6,330 bases of DNA from the IMG/VR virus record IMGVR_UViG_2734482547_000007. One strand, written 5' to 3'. Made by a program: the position numbers and the translations under genes. The notes under the pieces are model-generated. The model ran no database searches. It worked only from the letters and a program-made list of their open reading frames with translations, and was not told where the DNA came from. The DNA comes from a virus. Lineage: Duplodnaviria; Heunggongvirae; Uroviricota; Caudoviricetes. Below are positions 1 to 6,330 of this stretch, one piece after another; within the stretch, counting starts at the first letter, position 1, and each line of letters begins with the position of its first letter.

Positions 1-72
1 GGGAAAAATATCATCAGATGGCTGCTTAAAAAAAGAACAAATGGTAGTGTCCGCTATTGCCAGTACACCTCA
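1..72. repeat. Left copy of a 72-bp perfect terminal inverted repeat (partner 6259..6330)
   Basis: Bases 1-72 equal the reverse complement of 6259-6330 when compared base by base; identity stops at position 73. Confidence 0.9.
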
Positions 73-271
73 TCCATCACCGAAAAAAATTGGCTTTTAC
101 ACCATTGGCGATAAAAGCATTTACCTGTATGACCTACGCCGCATGGATGAAATCATGGAGGCTCTTGATAATCGTTCGTCGATGGATTGGTGTGTTGCTG
201 TTCATGATATGAATGCAGGGTTTGATGAAAAGATTTTGTTCCCCTCATCAGTTGAAAGCACTGCGGGTTAA
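41..271 (+). CDS. Hypothetical phage protein, probably 5'-truncated (reading frame stays open upstream to the window start)
   Basis: ORF-track ORF of 76 aa; no in-frame stop between position 2 and 41; stop at 269-271 is followed by AAGGAG and the next gene start, so it sits in an operon. No family recognised. Confidence 0.4.
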   Translation: MVVSAIASTPHPSPKKIGFYTIGDKSIYLYDLRRMDEIMEALDNRSSMDWCVAVHDMNAGFDEKILFPSSVESTAG

Positions 272-281
272 GGAGTAACAC

Positions 282-449
282 ATGACCACTATTACCAAAG
301 AACGTATTGAATTGTTCATTAAAAACCCGCTTGAAAACGGGCTTACCCGTGGTGAACAAATGGAACTGGCACGGATTGCGCTGGCATCGCTGGAAGCAGA
401 GCCGGTTGTGTTCTGGTTTGAAAAATATCAAGAAGGGGCTACGGCATGA
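282..449 (+). CDS. Hypothetical small protein (55 aa), paralog of the next ORF
   Basis: ATG at 282 preceded by AAGGAG (270-275); translation [12 protein letters not shown]...[10 protein letters not shown]; its stop overlaps the next start (ATGA at 446-449). Absent from the ORF track only because it is under 60 aa. Confidence 0.5.
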
Positions 450-790
450 CGACTTTTACCAGAGAGCAGTTAATAGCTCACGCAGAGGAGACTATTGAAG
501 CACAGAGACTGTGCATACCGGGCACAATCGACCATGACATCATCCGCACATATAAGATGGATATTGCTGTTCTGGAAATCGCACTGGTATCGCTGGCAGC
601 AGAGCCAGCCGGTAAATTGCATGAATACAAACCAGTGGGATATCAGCGTCTGGTCGATGAGTTAACCATGCTGGTAAAGCAGTTAACCTGGCAACTGAGG
701 AAAGCGAAGCCAGACTGCAAATTACCGGATAAGGCGATGAGTTATCTGGAGCGGAACGGACTGATAAGCGTGGAGGATATTTTACGATGA
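446..790 (+). CDS. Hypothetical protein (114 aa), paralog of the 282..449 ORF
   Basis: ORF-track ORF; GAAGG 9 nt upstream; N-terminus [12 protein letters not shown] and motif [10 protein letters not shown] parallel the upstream ORF; its stop overlaps the next ATG (ATGA at 787-790). Confidence 0.6.
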
Positions 791-870
791 CCTGGCCTGA
801 AGCATTAACAACGGTAGGAATTGCGATGGCGGTGGCGCTGGTGGTGTATTCGATTTGCCGCTGGGGATAA
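787..870 (+). CDS. Small hydrophobic peptide (27 aa), predicted single transmembrane segment
   Basis: ATG at 787 with GGAGGA about 10 nt upstream; translation [27 protein letters not shown]; start overlaps the upstream stop. Short length limits confidence. Confidence 0.4.
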
Positions 871-876
871 AAACGG

Positions 877-905
877 TTTGCGGGAAAAGGAGAGTTAAGT
901 AGAAT
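877..905 (+). promoter_or_regulatory. Candidate promoter for the hok mRNA (-35 TTTGCG/TTGCGG, -10 TAGAAT at 900-905)
   Basis: Sigma70-like hexamers with 16-17 bp spacing, placed so the transcript would start near 912 at the tac element. Confidence 0.35.
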
Positions 906-911
906 TGCAGC

Positions 912-923
912 GGGTGCTTGAGG
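912..923 (+). promoter_or_regulatory. hok mRNA 5' element (tac-like) that can pair with the 3' fbi-like element at 1287..1299
   Basis: GGGUGCUUGAGG (912-923) pairs with CCUCAAUGCACCC (1287-1299) as 12 bp with one bulged U. Nearby, CTATCTG (924-930) pairs with CAGATAG (954-960). Confidence 0.5.
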
Positions 924-960
924 CTATCTGTCTCAGGCATGAACACCAAAAGGCAGATAG

Positions 961-1033
961 AGAAAAGCCCCAGTTAACATTACGCGTCCGGCAAGACGCT
1001 TAACATTAATCTGAGGCTCAATCTATGAACGGC
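961..1033 (-). ncRNA. sok: Candidate sok-like antisense RNA opposing the hok leader and mok start
   Basis: Minus-strand promoter-like hexamers inside the 5' end of the upstream reading frame: -35 TTGCCT (complement of 1063-1068), 17-bp spacer, -10 TAACCT (complement of 1040-1045). A GCGTC/GACGC hairpin (984-999) lies in the predicted transcript. Ends are approximate. Confidence 0.3.
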
Positions 1034-1081
1034 AAATCTAGGTTAGCCTCTTACGTGCCGAAAGGCAAGGAGAAGCAGGCT

Positions 1082-1237
1082 ATGAAGCAGCAAAAGGCGA
1101 TGTTAATCGCCCTGATCGTCATCTGTTTAACCGTCATAGTGACGGCACTGGTAACGAGGAAAGACCTCTGCGAGGTACGAATTCGAACCGGCCAGACGGA
1201 GGTCGCTGTCTTCACAGCTTACGAACCTGAGGAGTAA
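1082..1237 (+). CDS. hokD: Hok-family type I toxin (51 aa, membrane-damaging peptide), HokD/RelF-like
   Basis: Translation MKQQKAMLIALIVICLTVIVTALVTRKDLCEVRIRTGQTEVAVFTAYEPEE matches Hok-family architecture and my recollection of E. coli HokD. AAGGAG 9 nt upstream. An in-frame ATG at 1025 with GAGG SD occupies the position of mok. Confidence 0.85.
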   Translation: MKQQKAMLIALIVICLTVIVTALVTRKDLCEVRIRTGQTEVAVFTAYEPEE

Positions 1238-1286
1238 GAGACCAGGCGGGGGAGAAATCCCTCGCCACCTCTGATGGGTCAGGCAT

Positions 1287-1299
1287 CCTCAATGCACCC
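1287..1299 (+). promoter_or_regulatory. hok mRNA 3' fold-back (fbi-like) element complementary to 912..923
   Basis: See the 912..923 pairing; an 8-mer TCAGGCAT also occurs at both 933-940 and 1279-1286. Confidence 0.45.
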
Positions 1300-1305
1300 A
1301 CACTT

Positions 1306-1326
1306 AACCCGCTTCGGCGGGTTTTT
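1306..1326 (+). terminator. Rho-independent terminator ending the hok transcript
   Basis: Stem CCCGC/GCGGG with a TTCG loop (1308-1321) followed by TTTTT. Confidence 0.7.
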
Positions 1327-1345
1327 GTTTTTATTTTCAACGCGT

Positions 1346-1375
1346 TTGAAGTTTTAGATGGTGCCGGAATAGAAT
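1346..1375 (+). promoter_or_regulatory. Candidate promoter (-35 TTGAAG, 18-bp spacer, -10 TAGAAT) upstream of the 1458 ORF
   Basis: Hexamer match only; the same -10 hexamer TAGAAT occurs in the hok promoter candidate. Confidence 0.25.
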
Positions 1376-1457
1376 CAAAAATACTTAAGTAGCGCGCAGG
1401 GAGAAGAGGGATGGACCCCGAACAGGGGAGTGCTATTTATCTGGAAGGATTCTGTTG

Positions 1458-1739
1458 ATGAAAATCGAAGAATTACGTGAAATTTTTAGTGAAGATGGCC
1501 TCTATACTGTGCGCGTTGAGAATGGCGCTATTGTCAGCCACTGCCTTCCAGACTACACAATTCTGATAATTCAGCCGTCTTTGCCAGCAGGCACGGGCGG
1601 CGCTCTCACGCATTTAAATCTGATTGGTACCAGCATCCCCCATGCACTGAAGAACAGGCCGAATGGCTCATTCAGTGTTACCGCAGGCGCGGATGCGAGG
1701 TTAAAAAAGCCCTTAGCCTCGACTACCGTCACTGGATAA
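1458..1739 (+). CDS. Hypothetical small protein; by position (hok - this ORF - DUF968) possibly Rem-like
   Basis: ATG at 1458 with GGAAGGA 8 nt upstream (the ORF track starts at TTG 1455). The C-terminal half is low-complexity, and an alternative frame stays open from 1520 to 1813, so the true extent is uncertain. Confidence 0.45.
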   Translation: MKIEELREIFSEDGLYTVRVENGAIVSHCLPDYTILIIQPSLPAGTGGALTHLNLIGTSIPHALKNRPNGSFSVTAGADARLKKPLASTTVTG

Positions 1740-1814
1740 TCTCCGTCAGGCTCCCTTACTCCGAACGGCCAACGCGTCCGTCCCGCACATTCCAGCAACG
1801 GATCTGGAGGTAAT

Positions 1815-2873
1815 GTGCGGGTATTACTTCGACCTGTTCTGGTACCGGAACTCGGTCTGGTTATCGTTAAGCCAGGCCGTGAATCAATGTCAGCATTCCA
1901 TAACGGCAGAATACTGGTGGAGCCGGAACCAAAAAGCATGCGTAATCTGCCGTCCGGGGTCGTTCCTGCCGCTCGCCAGCCGCTGGTGGAAGACAAAACA
2001 TTGCTGCCGTTTTTCAGTAACGCACGGGTGATTCGTGCTGCTGGTGGTGCTGGTGCATTGTCTGACTGGCTGTTGCGCCATATTAAATCCTGCCAGTGGC
2101 CACACGGCGATTATCATCACAGCGAAACCGTCATTCACCGTTATGGTACCGGCGCAATGGTGTTGTGCTGGCACTGCGACAACCAGCTGCGTGACCAGAC
2201 ATCCGAATCACTCGAGCAACTTGCTCATCAAAACCTGTCAGCATGGATGATTGACGTCATCGGTCACGCAATAAGCGGTACGCAGGAGCGTGAATTATCT
2301 CTGGCTGAATTATCCTGGTGGGCGGTCCGCAATCAGGTGGCGGACGCGCTACCGGAAGCGGTATTACGTCGTTCGCTGGGGTTGCGTGCGGAAAAAATTC
2401 GCTCTGTGTACAGTGAAAGCGACATCATACCGGGAGAGCAGACAGCCACCAGCATACTGAAGCAGCGCACAAAAAATATTGCGTTACTGCCTCACGTCCA
2501 CCAGCAACAGAACCCACCACAGGAAAAGACGGTGGTCAGCATTGCCGTTGATCCGGAGTCACCGGCTCAGTATCTCCAGCGCCAGAAATCACAACGGGAA
2601 GAGATGCCTGTATACACGCGCTGGGTAAAAACGCAGAAATGCATGACGTGTGGCAATCAGGCAGATGATCCGCATCACATCATTGGTCATGGACTGGGAG
2701 GGATGGGAACAAAGGCTGATGATTTGTTTGTTATTCCGTTATGCCGTAAATGCCGTAACGAACTACATGCCGGAGTAAAAGATTTTGAAGAGAAACACGG
2801 CAGTCAGCTGTTGTTGCTGATTCGTTTTTTAATGCACGCGAGAAATTCGGGTGTTCTGAAGTGGAAAGCATAA
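1815..2873 (+). CDS. ydfU: DUF968-family prophage protein (YdfU-like) with an HNH/zinc-finger-like C-terminus
   Basis: 352-aa ORF; C-terminal CMTCGNQADDPHHIIGHGLGG...CRKCRNELH carries Cys and His pairs typical of HNH-like folds. GTG start with GGAGG 4 nt upstream; stop abuts the rusA start. Confidence 0.75.
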   Translation: MRVLLRPVLVPELGLVIVKPGRESMSAFHNGRILVEPEPKSMRNLPSGVVPAARQPLVEDKTLLPFFSNARVIRAAGGAGALSDWLLRHIKSCQWPHGDYHHSETVIHRYGTGAMVLCWHCDNQLRDQTSESLEQLAHQNLSAWMIDVIGHAISGTQERELSLAELSWWAVRNQVADALPEAVLRRSLGLRAEKIRSVYSESDIIPGEQTATSILKQRTKNIALLPHVHQQQNPPQEKTVVSIAVDPESPAQYLQRQKSQREEMPVYTRWVKTQKCMTCGNQADDPHHIIGHGLGGMGTKADDLFVIPLCRKCRNELHAGVKDFEEKHGSQLLLLIRFLMHARNSGVLKWKA

Positions 2874-3254
2874 ATGACCGAGCGCATAGAATTTGTTTTA
2901 CCTTACCCGCCGACGGTGAACACTTACTGGCGTCGTCGTGGCAGCACATATTTTGTATCAAAAGCCGGGGAGCGTTATCGCCGGGCAGTGGCGCTTATTG
3001 TTCGCCAGCAGCGGCTGAAATTAAGCCTGTCCGGAAGGTTGGCAATAAAAATTATTGCAGAACCACCGGATAAGCGCCGCCGTGACCTGGACAATATTCT
3101 GAAAGCGCCGCTGGATGCGCTGACGCATGCGGGGTTGCTAATGGACGATGAGCAGTTTGATGAAATCAATATCGTTCGTGCTCAGCCAGTATCTGGTGGA
3201 CGTCTGGGGGTGAAGATTTATCCCATAATGCTTGAAGGGCAGGTCAAAAAATGA
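2874..3254 (+). CDS. rusA: RusA-family Holliday junction resolvase
   Basis: 126 aa; motif PDKRRRDLDN...DALTHAGLLMDDEQ...GGRLGVKI matches the acidic catalytic cluster and overall pattern of E. coli RusA as I recall it; 4-bp overlap with the next gene. Confidence 0.85.
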   Translation: MTERIEFVLPYPPTVNTYWRRRGSTYFVSKAGERYRRAVALIVRQQRLKLSLSGRLAIKIIAEPPDKRRRDLDNILKAPLDALTHAGLLMDDEQFDEINIVRAQPVSGGRLGVKIYPIMLEGQVKK

Positions 3255-4072
3255 AACTGGAAGATTTACCGAAATACTACTCCCCAAAATCCCCCGGCCT
3301 GACTGATGCATCGGCCTCAACGTCGAAAGATGCGCTGAGTATCACTGATGTGATGGCCGCGCAGGGCATGACACAGAATCGGGCTGAGATGGGGGTTTCT
3401 GCGTTCCTTGGGAAAATGGGCATTAGTATGAATGACAGAGAGCGGGCAACAGAATTGCTGACAGAATATGCACTCAGTCGGTGTGATCGCGTGGCGGCGT
3501 TAAGAAAACTCCCGGCAGAAATAAAACCGGCAGTGATGCGTATTATGGCTTCGTATGCGTTTGAAGATTATGCCCGTAGCGCGGCGAGCAAAAAACAGTG
3601 CCCCTGCTGTCACGGAAAAAAATTTATTGAAAGCGAGGTTTTTACAAACAAGATCCAGTATCCGGATGGTAAGCCGCCGGTATGGGCAAAGTGTACGAAA
3701 GGTGTGTATCCGTCTTACTGGGAAGAATGGAAAAAAGTCAGGGAGGTGGTAAAAGTTGCCTGTCCGGAGTGTGGCGGAAAGGGTGAGGTTTCCACCGCCT
3801 GTAAGGATTGCCGTGGGCGTGGTGTCGCCATTCATCGTGAAGAGTCGGTAAAACGTGGTATGCCTGTTATCAGAGACTGCCAGCGTTGTGGTGGTCGTGG
3901 CTATGAAAGACTACCATCAACGGAGGCATTTAATGCTATATGCGAGGTGACAAACCAGATAACACGCGCGTCATGGGAAAAAACAGTTAAGAAATTTTAT
4001 GATGCGCTGGTGACCCGGTTTGATATTGAAGAAGCATGGGCTGAGCGGCAGTTAAAAAAGGTAACTAGGTAA
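3251..4072 (+). CDS. Q: Late-gene antiterminator Q (lambda-Q-like) with an expanded cysteine-rich zinc-binding region
   Basis: Blocks resembling lambda Q: YYSPKSP, TDVMAAQGM, ASYAFEDYARSAA, CQRCGGRGYERLP, SWEKTVKKFYDALV, C-terminal KKVTR. Four CxxCxG(xG) motifs. Followed directly by a lambda-like pR'. Confidence 0.85.
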   Translation: MKLEDLPKYYSPKSPGLTDASASTSKDALSITDVMAAQGMTQNRAEMGVSAFLGKMGISMNDRERATELLTEYALSRCDRVAALRKLPAEIKPAVMRIMASYAFEDYARSAASKKQCPCCHGKKFIESEVFTNKIQYPDGKPPVWAKCTKGVYPSYWEEWKKVREVVKVACPECGGKGEVSTACKDCRGRGVAIHREESVKRGMPVIRDCQRCGGRGYERLPSTEAFNAICEVTNQITRASWEKTVKKFYDALVTRFDIEEAWAERQLKKVTR

Positions 4073-4077
4073 CAAGG

Positions 4078-4117
4078 TTGATTTTTCCGGAATCTGTGGT
4101 AAATTCGTCATAACGAT
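4078..4117 (+). promoter_or_regulatory. Late promoter pR' with extended -10 and sigma-dependent pause element (Q-loading region)
   Basis: -35 TTGATT (4078-4083), 16-bp spacer, TGg-TAAATT (4097-4105), then AACGATGGG (4112-4120) placed 6 nt after the -10, as in lambda pR' as I recall it. Confidence 0.7.
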
Positions 4118-4152
4118 GGGCGTTTTATGCCTGACGTTAGAAGAGTTTCTAC

Positions 4153-4176
4153 AACCCGCCGCCGAGCGGGTTTTTT
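4153..4176 (+). terminator. tR'-like rho-independent terminator
   Basis: Stem AACCCGC/GCGGGTT with loop CGCCGA, then TTTTTT; about 65 nt downstream of the pR' start. Confidence 0.7.
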
Positions 4177-4296
4177 ATGACTGAAATCGCGTCAGTACAG
4201 TAAACGCGCTGGTGGCGGTGAATACCTGTCTTTCAGCTTGCTGGCTTTTTCGACAAGAGTTATTGGTGTGTCACGTTAACCGGAAAAGGAAAAGAC

Positions 4297-4494
4297 ATGC
4301 TAAAACAGCAGGATATGACAGAAACCGCCAGAGTGGTGTTTAATGAATTAAGCGTTACCGAACCGGCGACAGTCGGGGAGATAGCGCAGAATACTTACCT
4401 TTCACGCGAACGCTGCCAGTTAATACTGACCCAGCTGGTTATGGCGGGTCTGGCAGACTATCAGTTCGGTTGTTACAGACGCCTTCCGCAGTGA
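4297..4494 (+). CDS. Small putative winged-helix/HTH DNA-binding protein (65 aa)
   Basis: ORF with AAGGA SD 8-9 nt upstream; segment TVGEIAQNTYLSRERCQLILTQLVMAGL looks like a helix-turn-helix. No family assigned. Confidence 0.5.
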   Translation: MLKQQDMTETARVVFNELSVTEPATVGEIAQNTYLSRERCQLILTQLVMAGLADYQFGCYRRLPQ

Positions 4495-4508
4495 AGGCTT
4501 TTTTATTT
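4481..4508 (+). terminator. Rho-independent terminator overlapping the stop of the 4297..4494 ORF
   Basis: Stem GCCTTC/GAAGGC with loop CGCAGT, followed by TTTTTTATTT. Confidence 0.7.
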
Positions 4509-4521
4509 GTGGTAAATGGGC

Positions 4522-4552
4522 GGCTGGTGGGTGTTAGGGGCACCCACCAGCC
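4522..4552. repeat. Perfect 12-bp inverted repeat (hairpin GGCTGGTGGGTG / CACCCACCAGCC, 7-nt loop)
   Basis: Verified base by base; no T-tract follows, so it is not a canonical terminator. Confidence 0.8.
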
Positions 4553-4593
4553 ATCTGCTCATGCGTTGGGTTCACAAGCAAACCTCAGGCCCA

Positions 4594-4612
4594 CTGCTTT
4601 GCGCAAAAGCAG
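4594..4612. promoter_or_regulatory. Near-palindromic site CTGCTTTGCGCAAAAGCAG upstream of the methyltransferase (candidate operator)
   Basis: Near-perfect dyad symmetry about 35 bp upstream of the methyltransferase start; function is inferred only from position. Confidence 0.25.
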
Positions 4613-4644
4613 AATGAGCCTATCAGAGACAGGCTTAATGATCC

Positions 4645-5703
4645 ATGCTTAATACTGTAAAAATATCCAGTTGTGAGTTAATCAACGCCGACTGCCTGGA
4701 ATTTATCCGGTCGTTACCCGAAAATTCTGTTGACCTGATAGTCACGGACCCGCCGTACTTTAAAGTGAAGCCTGAGGGCTGGGATAACCAGTGGAAGGGC
4801 GACGATGATTACCTGAAGTGGCTGGACCAGTGTCTGGCGCAGTTCTGGCGGGTGCTGAAACCTGCCGGAAGTCTTTACCTGTTCTGTGGTCATCGCCTGG
4901 CATCTGATATCGAAATCATGATGCGTGAACGCTTCAGTGTGCTGAACCATATTATCTGGGCGAAGCCGTCCGGACGCTGGAACGGATGCAACAAGGAAAG
5001 CCTGCGGGCGTATTTCCCCGCCACAGAGCGCATTCTGTTCGCGGAACATTATCAGGGGCCGTATCGTCCGAAAGATGCCGGGTATGCGGCGAAGGGCAGT
5101 GCACTGAAACAGCATGTGATGGCCCCGCTGATTTCTTACTTTCGTGATGCGCGAGCTGCCCTGGGGATAACGGCAAAACAGATTGCAGATGCCACAGGAA
5201 AGAAAAACATGGTGTCGCACTGGTTCAGTGCCGGTCAGTGGCAGTTGCCGAATGAAAGCGATTATCTGAAATTACAGGCGCTGTTTGCCCGGGTGGCAGA
5301 AGAGAAGCATCGGCGTGGTGAACTGGAAAAGCTCCACCACCAGCTGGTGGATACGTATACCTCACTGAACCGGCAGTATGCGGAGCTGCTGAGTGAATAT
5401 AAACATCTGCGGCGGTATTTTGGCGTGACGGTGCAGGTGCCGTATACCGATGTGTGGACGCATAAACCGGTGCAGTTCTATCCCGGGAAACATCCGTGCG
5501 AAAAACCGGCAGAAATGCTGCAGCAGATAATCAGCGCTAGCAGTCGTCCGGGTGACCTGATTGCAGATTTTTTCATGGGGTTGGGTTCGACAGTGAAAGC
5601 GGCACTGGCGCTCGGGCGTCGTGCAATTGGCGTTGAGCTGGAGACTGAACGTTTTGAGCAGACGGTTCGGGAAGTACAGGATTTAGTCAGCCAGAACGGA
5701 TGA
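4645..5703 (+). CDS. DNA methyltransferase (N6-adenine or N4-cytosine, DPPY motif N-terminal, FxGxG motif C-terminal), apparently orphan
   Basis: 352 aa; DLIVTDPPYF near the N-terminus and DLIADFFMGLGST near the C-terminus. No restriction endonuclease partner is visible in the window. Confidence 0.85.
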   Translation: MLNTVKISSCELINADCLEFIRSLPENSVDLIVTDPPYFKVKPEGWDNQWKGDDDYLKWLDQCLAQFWRVLKPAGSLYLFCGHRLASDIEIMMRERFSVLNHIIWAKPSGRWNGCNKESLRAYFPATERILFAEHYQGPYRPKDAGYAAKGSALKQHVMAPLISYFRDARAALGITAKQIADATGKKNMVSHWFSAGQWQLPNESDYLKLQALFARVAEEKHRRGELEKLHHQLVDTYTSLNRQYAELLSEYKHLRRYFGVTVQVPYTDVWTHKPVQFYPGKHPCEKPAEMLQQIISASSRPGDLIADFFMGLGSTVKAALALGRRAIGVELETERFEQTVREVQDLVSQNG

Positions 5704-5743
5704 TATTGAAGAATTAATTACGCGTCGTTATTATGCGGCTCCC

Positions 5744-5819
5744 GGCCCTTTAGCTCAGTGGTGAGAGCGAGCGACTCATAATCGCCAGGTCGCTGGTTCA
5801 AATCCAGCAAGGGCCACCA
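5744..5819 (+). tRNA. tRNA with CAU anticodon, most similar to tRNA-Ile2 (lysidine type; ileX/ileZ-like); tRNA-Met not excluded
   Basis: Cloverleaf checked by hand: acceptor GGCCCTT/AAGGGCC, D-arm GCTC...GAGC, anticodon loop CUCAUAA, T-arm GCTGG-TTCAAAT-CCAGC, encoded CCA. Near-identical in layout to E. coli ileX as I recall it. Confidence 0.8.
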
Positions 5820-5826
5820 TCACATA

Positions 5827-5862
5827 CCGCCATTAGCTCATCAGGAAAGAGCGCCAGCCTTC
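5827..5862 (+). tRNA. 5' part of a second tRNA, cut by the N gap; anticodon starts U-C-, so Arg (UCU/UCG) is most likely
   Basis: Acceptor 5' strand, U8-A9, D-arm GCTC...GAGC and anticodon stem are readable; loop reads CUUC then Ns. Arg is favoured by analogy with ileZ-argN-argO arrays in Stx-type phages. Confidence 0.4.
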
Positions 5863-5926
5863 NNNNNNNNNNNNNNNNNNNNNNNNNNNNNNNNNNNNNN
5901 NNNNNNNNNNNNNNNNNNNNNNNNNN
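5863..5926. other. Run of 64 N (assembly gap or masked sequence) inside the tRNA array
   Basis: Seen directly in the sequence. Confidence 0.99.
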
Positions 5927-6258
5927 GAATCCCCCTGTGCGGAGGGGCAATCAGCGAGTAGGTATATGGGATAATCGCGGATTCAGGTGCTGGTACTGAA
6001 TTCACCGGGAGGCACCCGGCATCATGCAATGGCACATAGCGCCACTCTCCAGCCCTCTCCGGAGGGGCTTTTCTGTGCCGGATACATCACAGTTTCTGGA
6101 ACCTTAGGTACTACAGTATCAGTCAGGGTGCTATATTTTCAGATGTGATGAAAGCCTGTCAGCAGGCAGGGCGTATCGGAAATGACCCAGTAGAGAAAAC
6201 GTTGACTCAGATACCGGTGCTGAGTTACCGGGAAACCGGCATCACATGACCGCTATCC

Positions 6259-6330
6259 TGAGGTGTACTGGCAATAGCGGACACTACCATTTGTTCTTTT
6301 TTTAAGCAGCCATCTGATGATATTTTTCCC
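6259..6330. repeat. Right copy of the 72-bp terminal inverted repeat (partner 1..72)
   Basis: Reverse complement of 6259-6330 equals bases 1-72. Confidence 0.9.

Follow-up and report, generated by a model that had tools for sequence, protein, structure and literature searches.

Terminal inverted repeat of the window

The window considered here, i.e. the whole stretch of 6330 nt that was analysed, begins and ends with the same 72 nucleotides in opposite orientations, and the question raised by this locus is what these nucleotides are and why they stand at exactly both tips of a phage-derived sequence. A repeat search of the window returned arms at 1-72 and 6259-6330, 72 nt each and 100% complementary, with 6186 nt between them, which agrees with the perfect terminal repeat of the original prediction. 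Both arms touch the window ends, no sequence lies outside them, and no further copy of the 72-mer was found within the 6330 nt. We calculate that in 6.3 kb a perfect inverted pair of 72 nt is expected by chance (6330^2/2)/4^72 times, about 1e-36. The minus-strand frame entered from the right arm also reads as predicted, MVVSAIASTPQDSGHVMPVSR*, with the stop after 21 codons. The inverted repeat is real but ordinary, and it is explained by the ends of the insertion sequence IS600.

The arms as the right end of IS600

The following elements have been identified in the two arms:

1..72, plus strand: left arm, the last 72 nt of the left IS600 (IS positions 1193-1264), 100% identical to annotated IS600 loci; the body of the element lies to the left of the window
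3..29, plus strand: 3' end of the orfB transposase gene with its last eight codons (…EKYHQMAA) and the stop TAA at 27-29, read directly and compared with orfB of loci L044 and L045
6259..6330, minus strand: right arm, the last 72 nt of the right IS600 in the opposite orientation, assigned by identity to the IS600 end; the body lies to the right of the window
6302-6328, minus strand: 3' end of orfB in the right arm

The arm is identical at 72/72 positions to loci annotated as "IS3-like element IS600 family transposase". In L044 and L045, orfB translates into a protein ending in ...AAFREKYHQMAA, and in locus L001 a transposase coding sequence with a programmed frameshift (RefSeq annotation) terminates 44 nt inside the arm. 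IS600 is a 1264-bp member of the IS3 family with TG...CA termini; the left copy ends in ...CA at window position 72, and its imperfect terminal inverted repeat occupies approximately 46-72, the last 27 nt or so. The left terminal repeat (IRL), TGAGGTAGCC..., and the reverse complement of the right one (IRR), TGAGGTGTAC..., are similar over about 27 nt and imperfect; because the terminal repeats are no longer than this, most of the 72-nt arm is ordinary IS interior. The full elements that continue beyond each arm carry called products of 385 aa with the domains HTH_Tnp_1, HTH_21, rve and rve_3. Identity of the terminus, full-length orfA/orfB, imperfect TG...CA repeats and a 3-bp duplication were all found, and the arms are thus the right end (IRR) of IS600 by every defining feature tested. 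That the repeat is the end of an insertion sequence, including the 3' end of its transposase gene, had escaped the original prediction.

IS600, first described in Shigella sonnei, is widespread. The 72-mer matches 2665 of 5426 complete E. coli genomes, at up to 43 places per genome and with 806 places on plasmids; these matches fall under IS3-family or "IS3-like element IS600 family" transposase annotations. Exact copies were retrieved in 39 loci, nearly all of them from Shigella flexneri SFBU1023 and E. coli ECMA0423 (4.44 Mb). One exact copy, at 55-126, lies in a 2526-bp contig labelled "MAG: Bacteroidetes bacterium" (L014, JAEXBS010000036.1), probably a misbinned enterobacterial contig. Five IS families, IS600 among them, have expanded in every Shigella species, and the reference chromosomes of these species carry 229-348 IS insertions each (PMC7373316).

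Flanking IS600 copies in complete chromosomes

The best long matches among the 5426 complete E. coli genomes cover 73..6072. The left 300 bases of the window match E. coli only from 72/73..300, with no genome covering at least 80% of them, and the right 404 bases only over 5927..6259/6260. E. coli matches to the interior therefore break exactly at the arm boundaries and never enter the arms; an arm-interior junction, left or right, is present in none of these 5426 genomes. Exact 41-nt junction probes matched against IMG/VR contigs revealed the left junction in eight contigs and the right junction in five. One of these catalogue contigs, L045 (21.5 kb), holds the whole window between a full IS600 and an inverted second copy of at least 989 nt, its length being limited only by the edge of the locus. 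The window's own contig was not among the entries matched by these probes or by the 72-mer.

Ten chromosome-scale loci from complete or near-complete assemblies were compared with the window, which was aligned as 1-5862 and 5927-6330. In eight of them the window maps at 99.97-100% identity between two full-length IS600 elements. In locus L055, and equally in the other seven, these elements, both of 1264 bp, lie at 8769-10032 (+) and 16398-17661 (-); L055 position 9961 corresponds to window position 1, 72 nt before the end of the left copy, and 16469 corresponds to window position 6330, 72 nt into the right copy. The flanking copies are convergent, with the 3' ends of their transposase genes (IRR) facing inward. 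Shigella sonnei is the documented source of two of the ten accessions: CP022457 (2015C-3566) has both IS600 copies, and CP060117 (UKMCC1015) is without the right one. The unique segment is 100% identical to complete chromosomes including that of S. sonnei 2015C-3566.

The paired IS600 copies are 99.8-100% identical, differing at 0-3 positions (IS positions 126, 980 and 1148). The window arms are perfect because no differing position falls within the last 72 nt. Two full-length IS600 copies thus flank exactly this segment in complete chromosomes. The suggestion that the repeat, if real, would represent an inverted duplication flanking the module is borne out by the two inverted 1264-bp elements, and since the chromosomes carry both full copies, a break in assembly and a real duplication are complementary explanations. 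Closed S. sonnei chromosomes in public databases already contain exactly this structure, and there is nothing biologically new in it.

The prophage module between the arms

In silico analysis of the interior revealed the following features:

73..6258, plus strand: unique segment, the late-regulatory module of a lambdoid prophage (Rfam, ARAGORN, Pfam and RefSeq annotation of homologous regions)
912-1087: sok RNA (Rfam, 112 bits)
1082-1237: hok, with mok from 1025 (Pfam HOK_GEF, E=1e-23)
1815-2873: DUF968/HNH protein (Pfam)
2874-3254: RusA (Pfam)
3251-4072: antiterminator Q (Pfam)
4645-5703: N6/N4 DNA methyltransferase (Pfam)
5744-5819: tRNA with anticodon CAT (ARAGORN), annotated as tRNA-Ile in RefSeq homologues
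from 5827: start of a tRNA-Arg running into the stretch of N (ARAGORN)
5864-5926: run of N, 63 nt
5898-6080: STnc100-like sRNA (Rfam)

Pfam searches of the interior found no replication, packaging or structural genes, and the window encodes no recombinase or dedicated invertase recognized by Pfam. Beyond the right IS600 the prophage continues with a 617-aa DUF1737/SASA esterase resembling nanS-p, followed by a holin. The type I toxin-antitoxin locus hok/mok/sok (912-1237) is apparently intact inside the segment bracketed by IS600. The right copy (window 6258/6259; L055:16398-17661) was inserted into the spacer that separates the tRNA/STnc100 block from the nanS-p-like esterase, where stxAB is located in Stx phages.

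The run of N measures 63 nt, compared with 243 nt for the corresponding stretch in all relatives (e.g. L055:15823-16065), where it accommodates the remaining part of tRNA-Arg(tcg), a second tRNA-Arg(tct), a T-rich stretch resembling a terminator and the beginning of the STnc100-like RNA. Being shorter than 243 nt, the run, whether a mask or a gap, does not preserve length; the true distance between the IS600 copies is therefore 6366 nt, not 6186, and the window does not reproduce the genomic sequence base for base. A further difference in length concerns L056 (11506-11755) and L061, in which an extra 250 bp encoding a small protein of the Rem family (PF27490) lies between window positions 1545 and 1546. 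This insert occurs in S. sonnei strains without the right IS600 and is missing from the window and from the strains with two copies.

The chimeric open reading frame at the left junction

One open reading frame spans the boundary between the left arm and the interior:

41..271, plus strand: chimeric ORF of 76 aa, the IS600 tip fused to a truncated phage gene

The ATG, the next nine codons and two bases of the 11th codon are supplied by the IS600 tip, in agreement with the 32 bases that had been assigned to the arm. The remainder comes from the 3' portion of a phage gene that, when intact, encodes an 87-aa hypothetical protein (L053:2437-2700). No Pfam family was assigned to the ORF, and a sigma-70 promoter scan of 1-400 for outward transcription from the IS tip gave one minus-strand site only, which is at chance level. 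The ORF by which the left copy was said to enter "sensible operon context" is IS sequence fused to a truncated phage gene; it is a by-product of the junction, not a gene family. As such it serves as a marker for the left junction: the exact 76-aa protein is on record in 795 blocks of a public collection, the longest carrying contig being 2-10 kb in 599 of them and chromosome-sized in 83.

How the two IS600 copies arrived

Two trinucleotides adjoining the arms bear on the history of the insertions:

73..75: TCC, one half of the 3-bp target duplication that the left IS600 originally had
6256..6258: TCC, the 3-bp target-site duplication of the right IS600, copy on the inner side

Simple transposition brought in the right copy, which duplicated 3 bp (TCC) of its target. 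The filled site reads ...GCTATCC|IS600|TCCTTCCAGG in L055 and seven other chromosomes, and the empty site ...GCTATCC|TTCCAGG is kept in L056, L061, L044 and L054 (E. coli ATCC 11775). The right insertion is polymorphic within the lineage, because sister strains keep the empty site. In contig L049, a simple insertion of the right copy was considered and rejected, its outer flank being different DNA.

The left copy began as a simple insertion and was later rearranged. It has no adjacent duplication; the bases outside it are TTT (TAG in L063 and L045) and those inside are TCC, so that a simple insertion of this copy as it now stands fails on comparison of the outer flank with uninterrupted sites. 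Its TCC has a partner which, in complete chromosomes, is now separated from it by about 3.5 kb and stands at the distal end of an inverted block: L053 positions 2502-2504 map to L055 10033-10035 and, inverted, to L055 6543-6545. Relative to the uninterrupted prophage in L053, the 5' part of the interrupted gene is now about 3.5 kb to the left and inverted, with an IS1 in the block. Because both the orphan TCC and the 5' part of the gene were located there, the left copy must once have been a normal insertion. In nine loci its outer flank is a DUF977 gene in inverted orientation; in L063 and L045 it is an unrelated ORF of 203 aa. The left copy was later rearranged at its IRL end, and recombination between IS copies gave rise to the strain-specific outer flanks.

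The inverted block to the left of the left IS600 (L055:6543-8769) is 2.2 kb of the same prophage and contains the 5' part of the interrupted gene, DUF4014, a 70-aa ORF, DUF977 and the IS1 insert. One breakpoint is the exact IRL tip of IS600; the orphan TCC is at the far end, adjoining ompW, and no IS600 is present at this second, ompW-side breakpoint. In L063:8170-8781 (S. sonnei CP045932) and L045:8606-9217 (an IMG/VR isolate) the left IS600 is joined to wholly different DNA, consisting of the 203-aa ORF, which is truncated by the IS, and unrelated hypothetical genes. The different left flank in CP045932 indicates a large rearrangement by recombination between IS600 copies. The outer-left flank of L045 matches E. 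coli chromosomes at 90-93% identity only, under four hypothetical proteins.

Length of the arms and the break in assembly

Almost certainly, the window is a short-read S. sonnei contig bounded by two convergent IS600 copies. It would be such a contig, or a catalogue entry derived from one, composed of the 6.2-kb unique prophage segment and the first 72 nt of the repeat on each side. The assembler would have halted inside the multi-copy IS600, and convergent copies at the two sides would make the contig tips mutually reverse-complementary. The proposal that the contig is bounded by a repeat that could not be assembled through accords with these results, as the 72-mer is the end of a multi-copy IS600 and draft contigs stop inside the same end. 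Among whole IMG/VR contigs, the IS600 tip is 107 nt at both ends of the sibling contig L041 (6236 bp), and at one end each 72 nt in L051, 51 nt in L046 and 32 nt in L048. Since the same IS end is carried for 32-107 nt in independent contigs, the length of the tip differs from assembly to assembly and is not a matter of biology. With a de Bruijn assembler, a unique contig would extend into a repeat by roughly one k-mer and no further; our guess is that 72 would fit k-1 at k=73, and we know of no common assembler whose default k it matches.

One of these catalogue entries, L048 (IMGVR_UViG_2690316285_000008, 6986 bp), contains the left junction twice, at 3842-3882 and 6931-6971, and at 3926/3927 a 61-nt IS600 tip is joined directly to a second hok region with 90% identity. 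It looks like a mis-join or an unmarked scaffold.

Alternative explanations

The repeat touches both contig ends exactly, which is a common appearance of artefacts, and a foldback or chimeric assembly, or a library artefact with no genomic counterpart, would produce it. Such an origin has hardly any chance of being correct: the junctions recur in the eight and five IMG/VR contigs, the left-junction protein is on record in 795 blocks, 83 of them with chromosome-sized contigs, and closed chromosomes hold both junctions together with full IS600 bodies. The chimeric or foldback option of the original prediction is excluded, both junctions recurring in many independent assemblies. Still closer to negligible is the probability of a complete linear element of 6.3 kb, whether a small phage, a plasmid or a transposon, with the arms as its true terminal repeats. 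The interior is indeed phage-derived, and contigs whose ends form an inverted repeat of 20 bp or more carry what serves as the signature of a closed viral genome (CheckV, PMC8116208). Against this, closed chromosomes and L045 read through the arms into 1264-bp IS600 elements and then into chromosomal or prophage DNA. The repeats of IS600 itself are about 27 nt long and imperfect, the rest of the arm including transposase coding sequence; the interior offers only hok/sok, DUF968, RusA, Q, the methylase and tRNAs, with no self-sufficient replicon or virion; and other contigs carry 32-107 nt of the same IS end.

The two copies could also be read as functional parts of a larger unit. Two apparently intact inverted IS600 elements, each encoding a 385-aa frameshift-fusion transposase, enclose a cargo, as they would in a composite transposon of the Tn10 or Tn5 type that moves the hok/sok, Q and methylase module as one unit. 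This is very improbable, for no duplication flanks the whole unit (outer-left TTT or TAG versus outer-right TCC), and the right copy arrived alone, as is evident from the separate TCC duplication around it and from the empty site of sister strains. In addition, the cargo stands in native prophage order with the esterase and holin past the right copy, both junctions are absent from the 5426 complete E. coli genomes, and these comparisons gave no second location, the right outer prophage flank being the same in all eight chromosomes with the right copy. A functional switch, in which recombination between the IS600 copies flips the Q/methylase module relative to the downstream late genes, is given equally little credence. 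In its favour, the inverted copies of 1264 bp share 99.8-100% identity, inversions associated with IS elements have been described from Shigella (PMC7819885), and the left copy has recombined, as its strain-dependent outer flank demonstrates. Nevertheless, all 25 contigs examined share one orientation, with the esterase and holin downstream of the right IS600 and the esterase never on the left, a limited sample drawn from the 24 marker blocks with the longest contigs (83 blocks hold chromosome-sized ones); moreover, the window holds no dedicated invertase and the repeats are whole IS copies. A contig ending inside two convergent IS600 copies is the reading retained here.

Inversion and target sites

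Near-identical inverted IS600 copies of 1.26 kb would be substrates for RecA-dependent inversion, which is mechanistically possible. The segment had been called potentially invertible or recombinogenic. A recombinogenic character is supported for the left copy, its outer flank differing between strains; invertibility is a possibility only, with no inverted isoform in the 25 contigs. A past inversion of the segment itself was considered and rejected: the left outer flank (TAG/TTT) is not the complement of the right inner TCC, and the swapped duplications that such an event would leave are absent.

The two IS600 target sites, GATCGCTA-TCC and GACCGCTA-TCC (window 62-83 and 6245-6266), match at 10 of 11 positions, and their uninterrupted forms are found at L053:2491-2510 and L054:4322-4345. 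The shared motif GAT/CCGCTA-TCC resembles ...ATAGCGG... within the right terminal repeat of IS600. A general preference of IS600 for CGCTATCC found no support beyond these two sites, no such motif being present at 16 other full-length copies; six of these 16 have 3-bp duplications, namely CGC, ACC, GTT, AAA, GTA and CTA. The similarity of the two sites may be a coincidence or a weak IR-like targeting effect. Insertion targeted to inverted repeats is described for IS911. The combined proposal, that the 6.4-kb module flips at low frequency in S. sonnei and that IS600 was drawn to both sites by the shared motif in the manner of IS911, is decidedly unlikely. If it were true, flipping would uncouple the Q antiterminator, the late promoter and the tRNA block from the downstream esterase and lysis genes.

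Comparison with known systems

Identity between the arms and the right end of annotated IS600 copies is 100%, and the flanking elements share all features of that family; the window differs in holding only 72 nt per copy, and the left copy is without an adjacent duplication after the rearrangement of its flank. The overall structure is a familiar one in Shigella, that of a prophage remnant broken up by insertion sequences. The expansion of IS600, prophage remnants with IS copies at their borders and rearrangements driven by such copies are all well known from this genus, and the lesson of this locus is methodological only: a prophage contig bounded by IS copies conforms to the rule for a closed genome with inverted terminal repeats (ITR) and can enter a catalogue as a whole virus of 6 kb. 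Such false positives would be removed by comparing terminal repeats with the ends of insertion sequences.

Two inverted copies of one IS bracket a cargo here as they do in the composite transposons Tn10/IS10 and Tn5/IS50. Unlike those elements, the unit as a whole has no flanking duplication and was found at no second location; each copy inserted on its own, and the cargo runs on into the DNA beyond the copies. With the ITR class of CheckV and IMG/VR the window shares a phage-derived contig and a perfect terminal inverted repeat of at least 20 bp; unlike a member of that class, it is not a closed genome, and its repeat consists of the truncated ends of flanking IS copies. The IMG/VR contig L041, with arms of 107 nt, is a sibling case. 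In the CheckV study, only 33.2% of ITR contigs met the high-quality standard (PMC8116208).

The closest published parallel is the defective Stx prophage of S. dysenteriae type 1, another lambdoid remnant broken up by insertion sequences, in which an IS600 occupies the region separating the Q/tRNA module from the downstream late genes (PMC7819885). That IS600 lies just upstream of stx, and the prophage shows IS-associated rearrangements (PMC7819885). The window, by contrast, belongs to S. sonnei and is without stx, and its IS600 copies are inverted, not direct. For this reason recombination between them would invert the segment and would neither delete nor amplify it, amplification and deletion being what McDonough and Butterton reportedly described in 1999 for the S. 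dysenteriae 1 Stx prophage.
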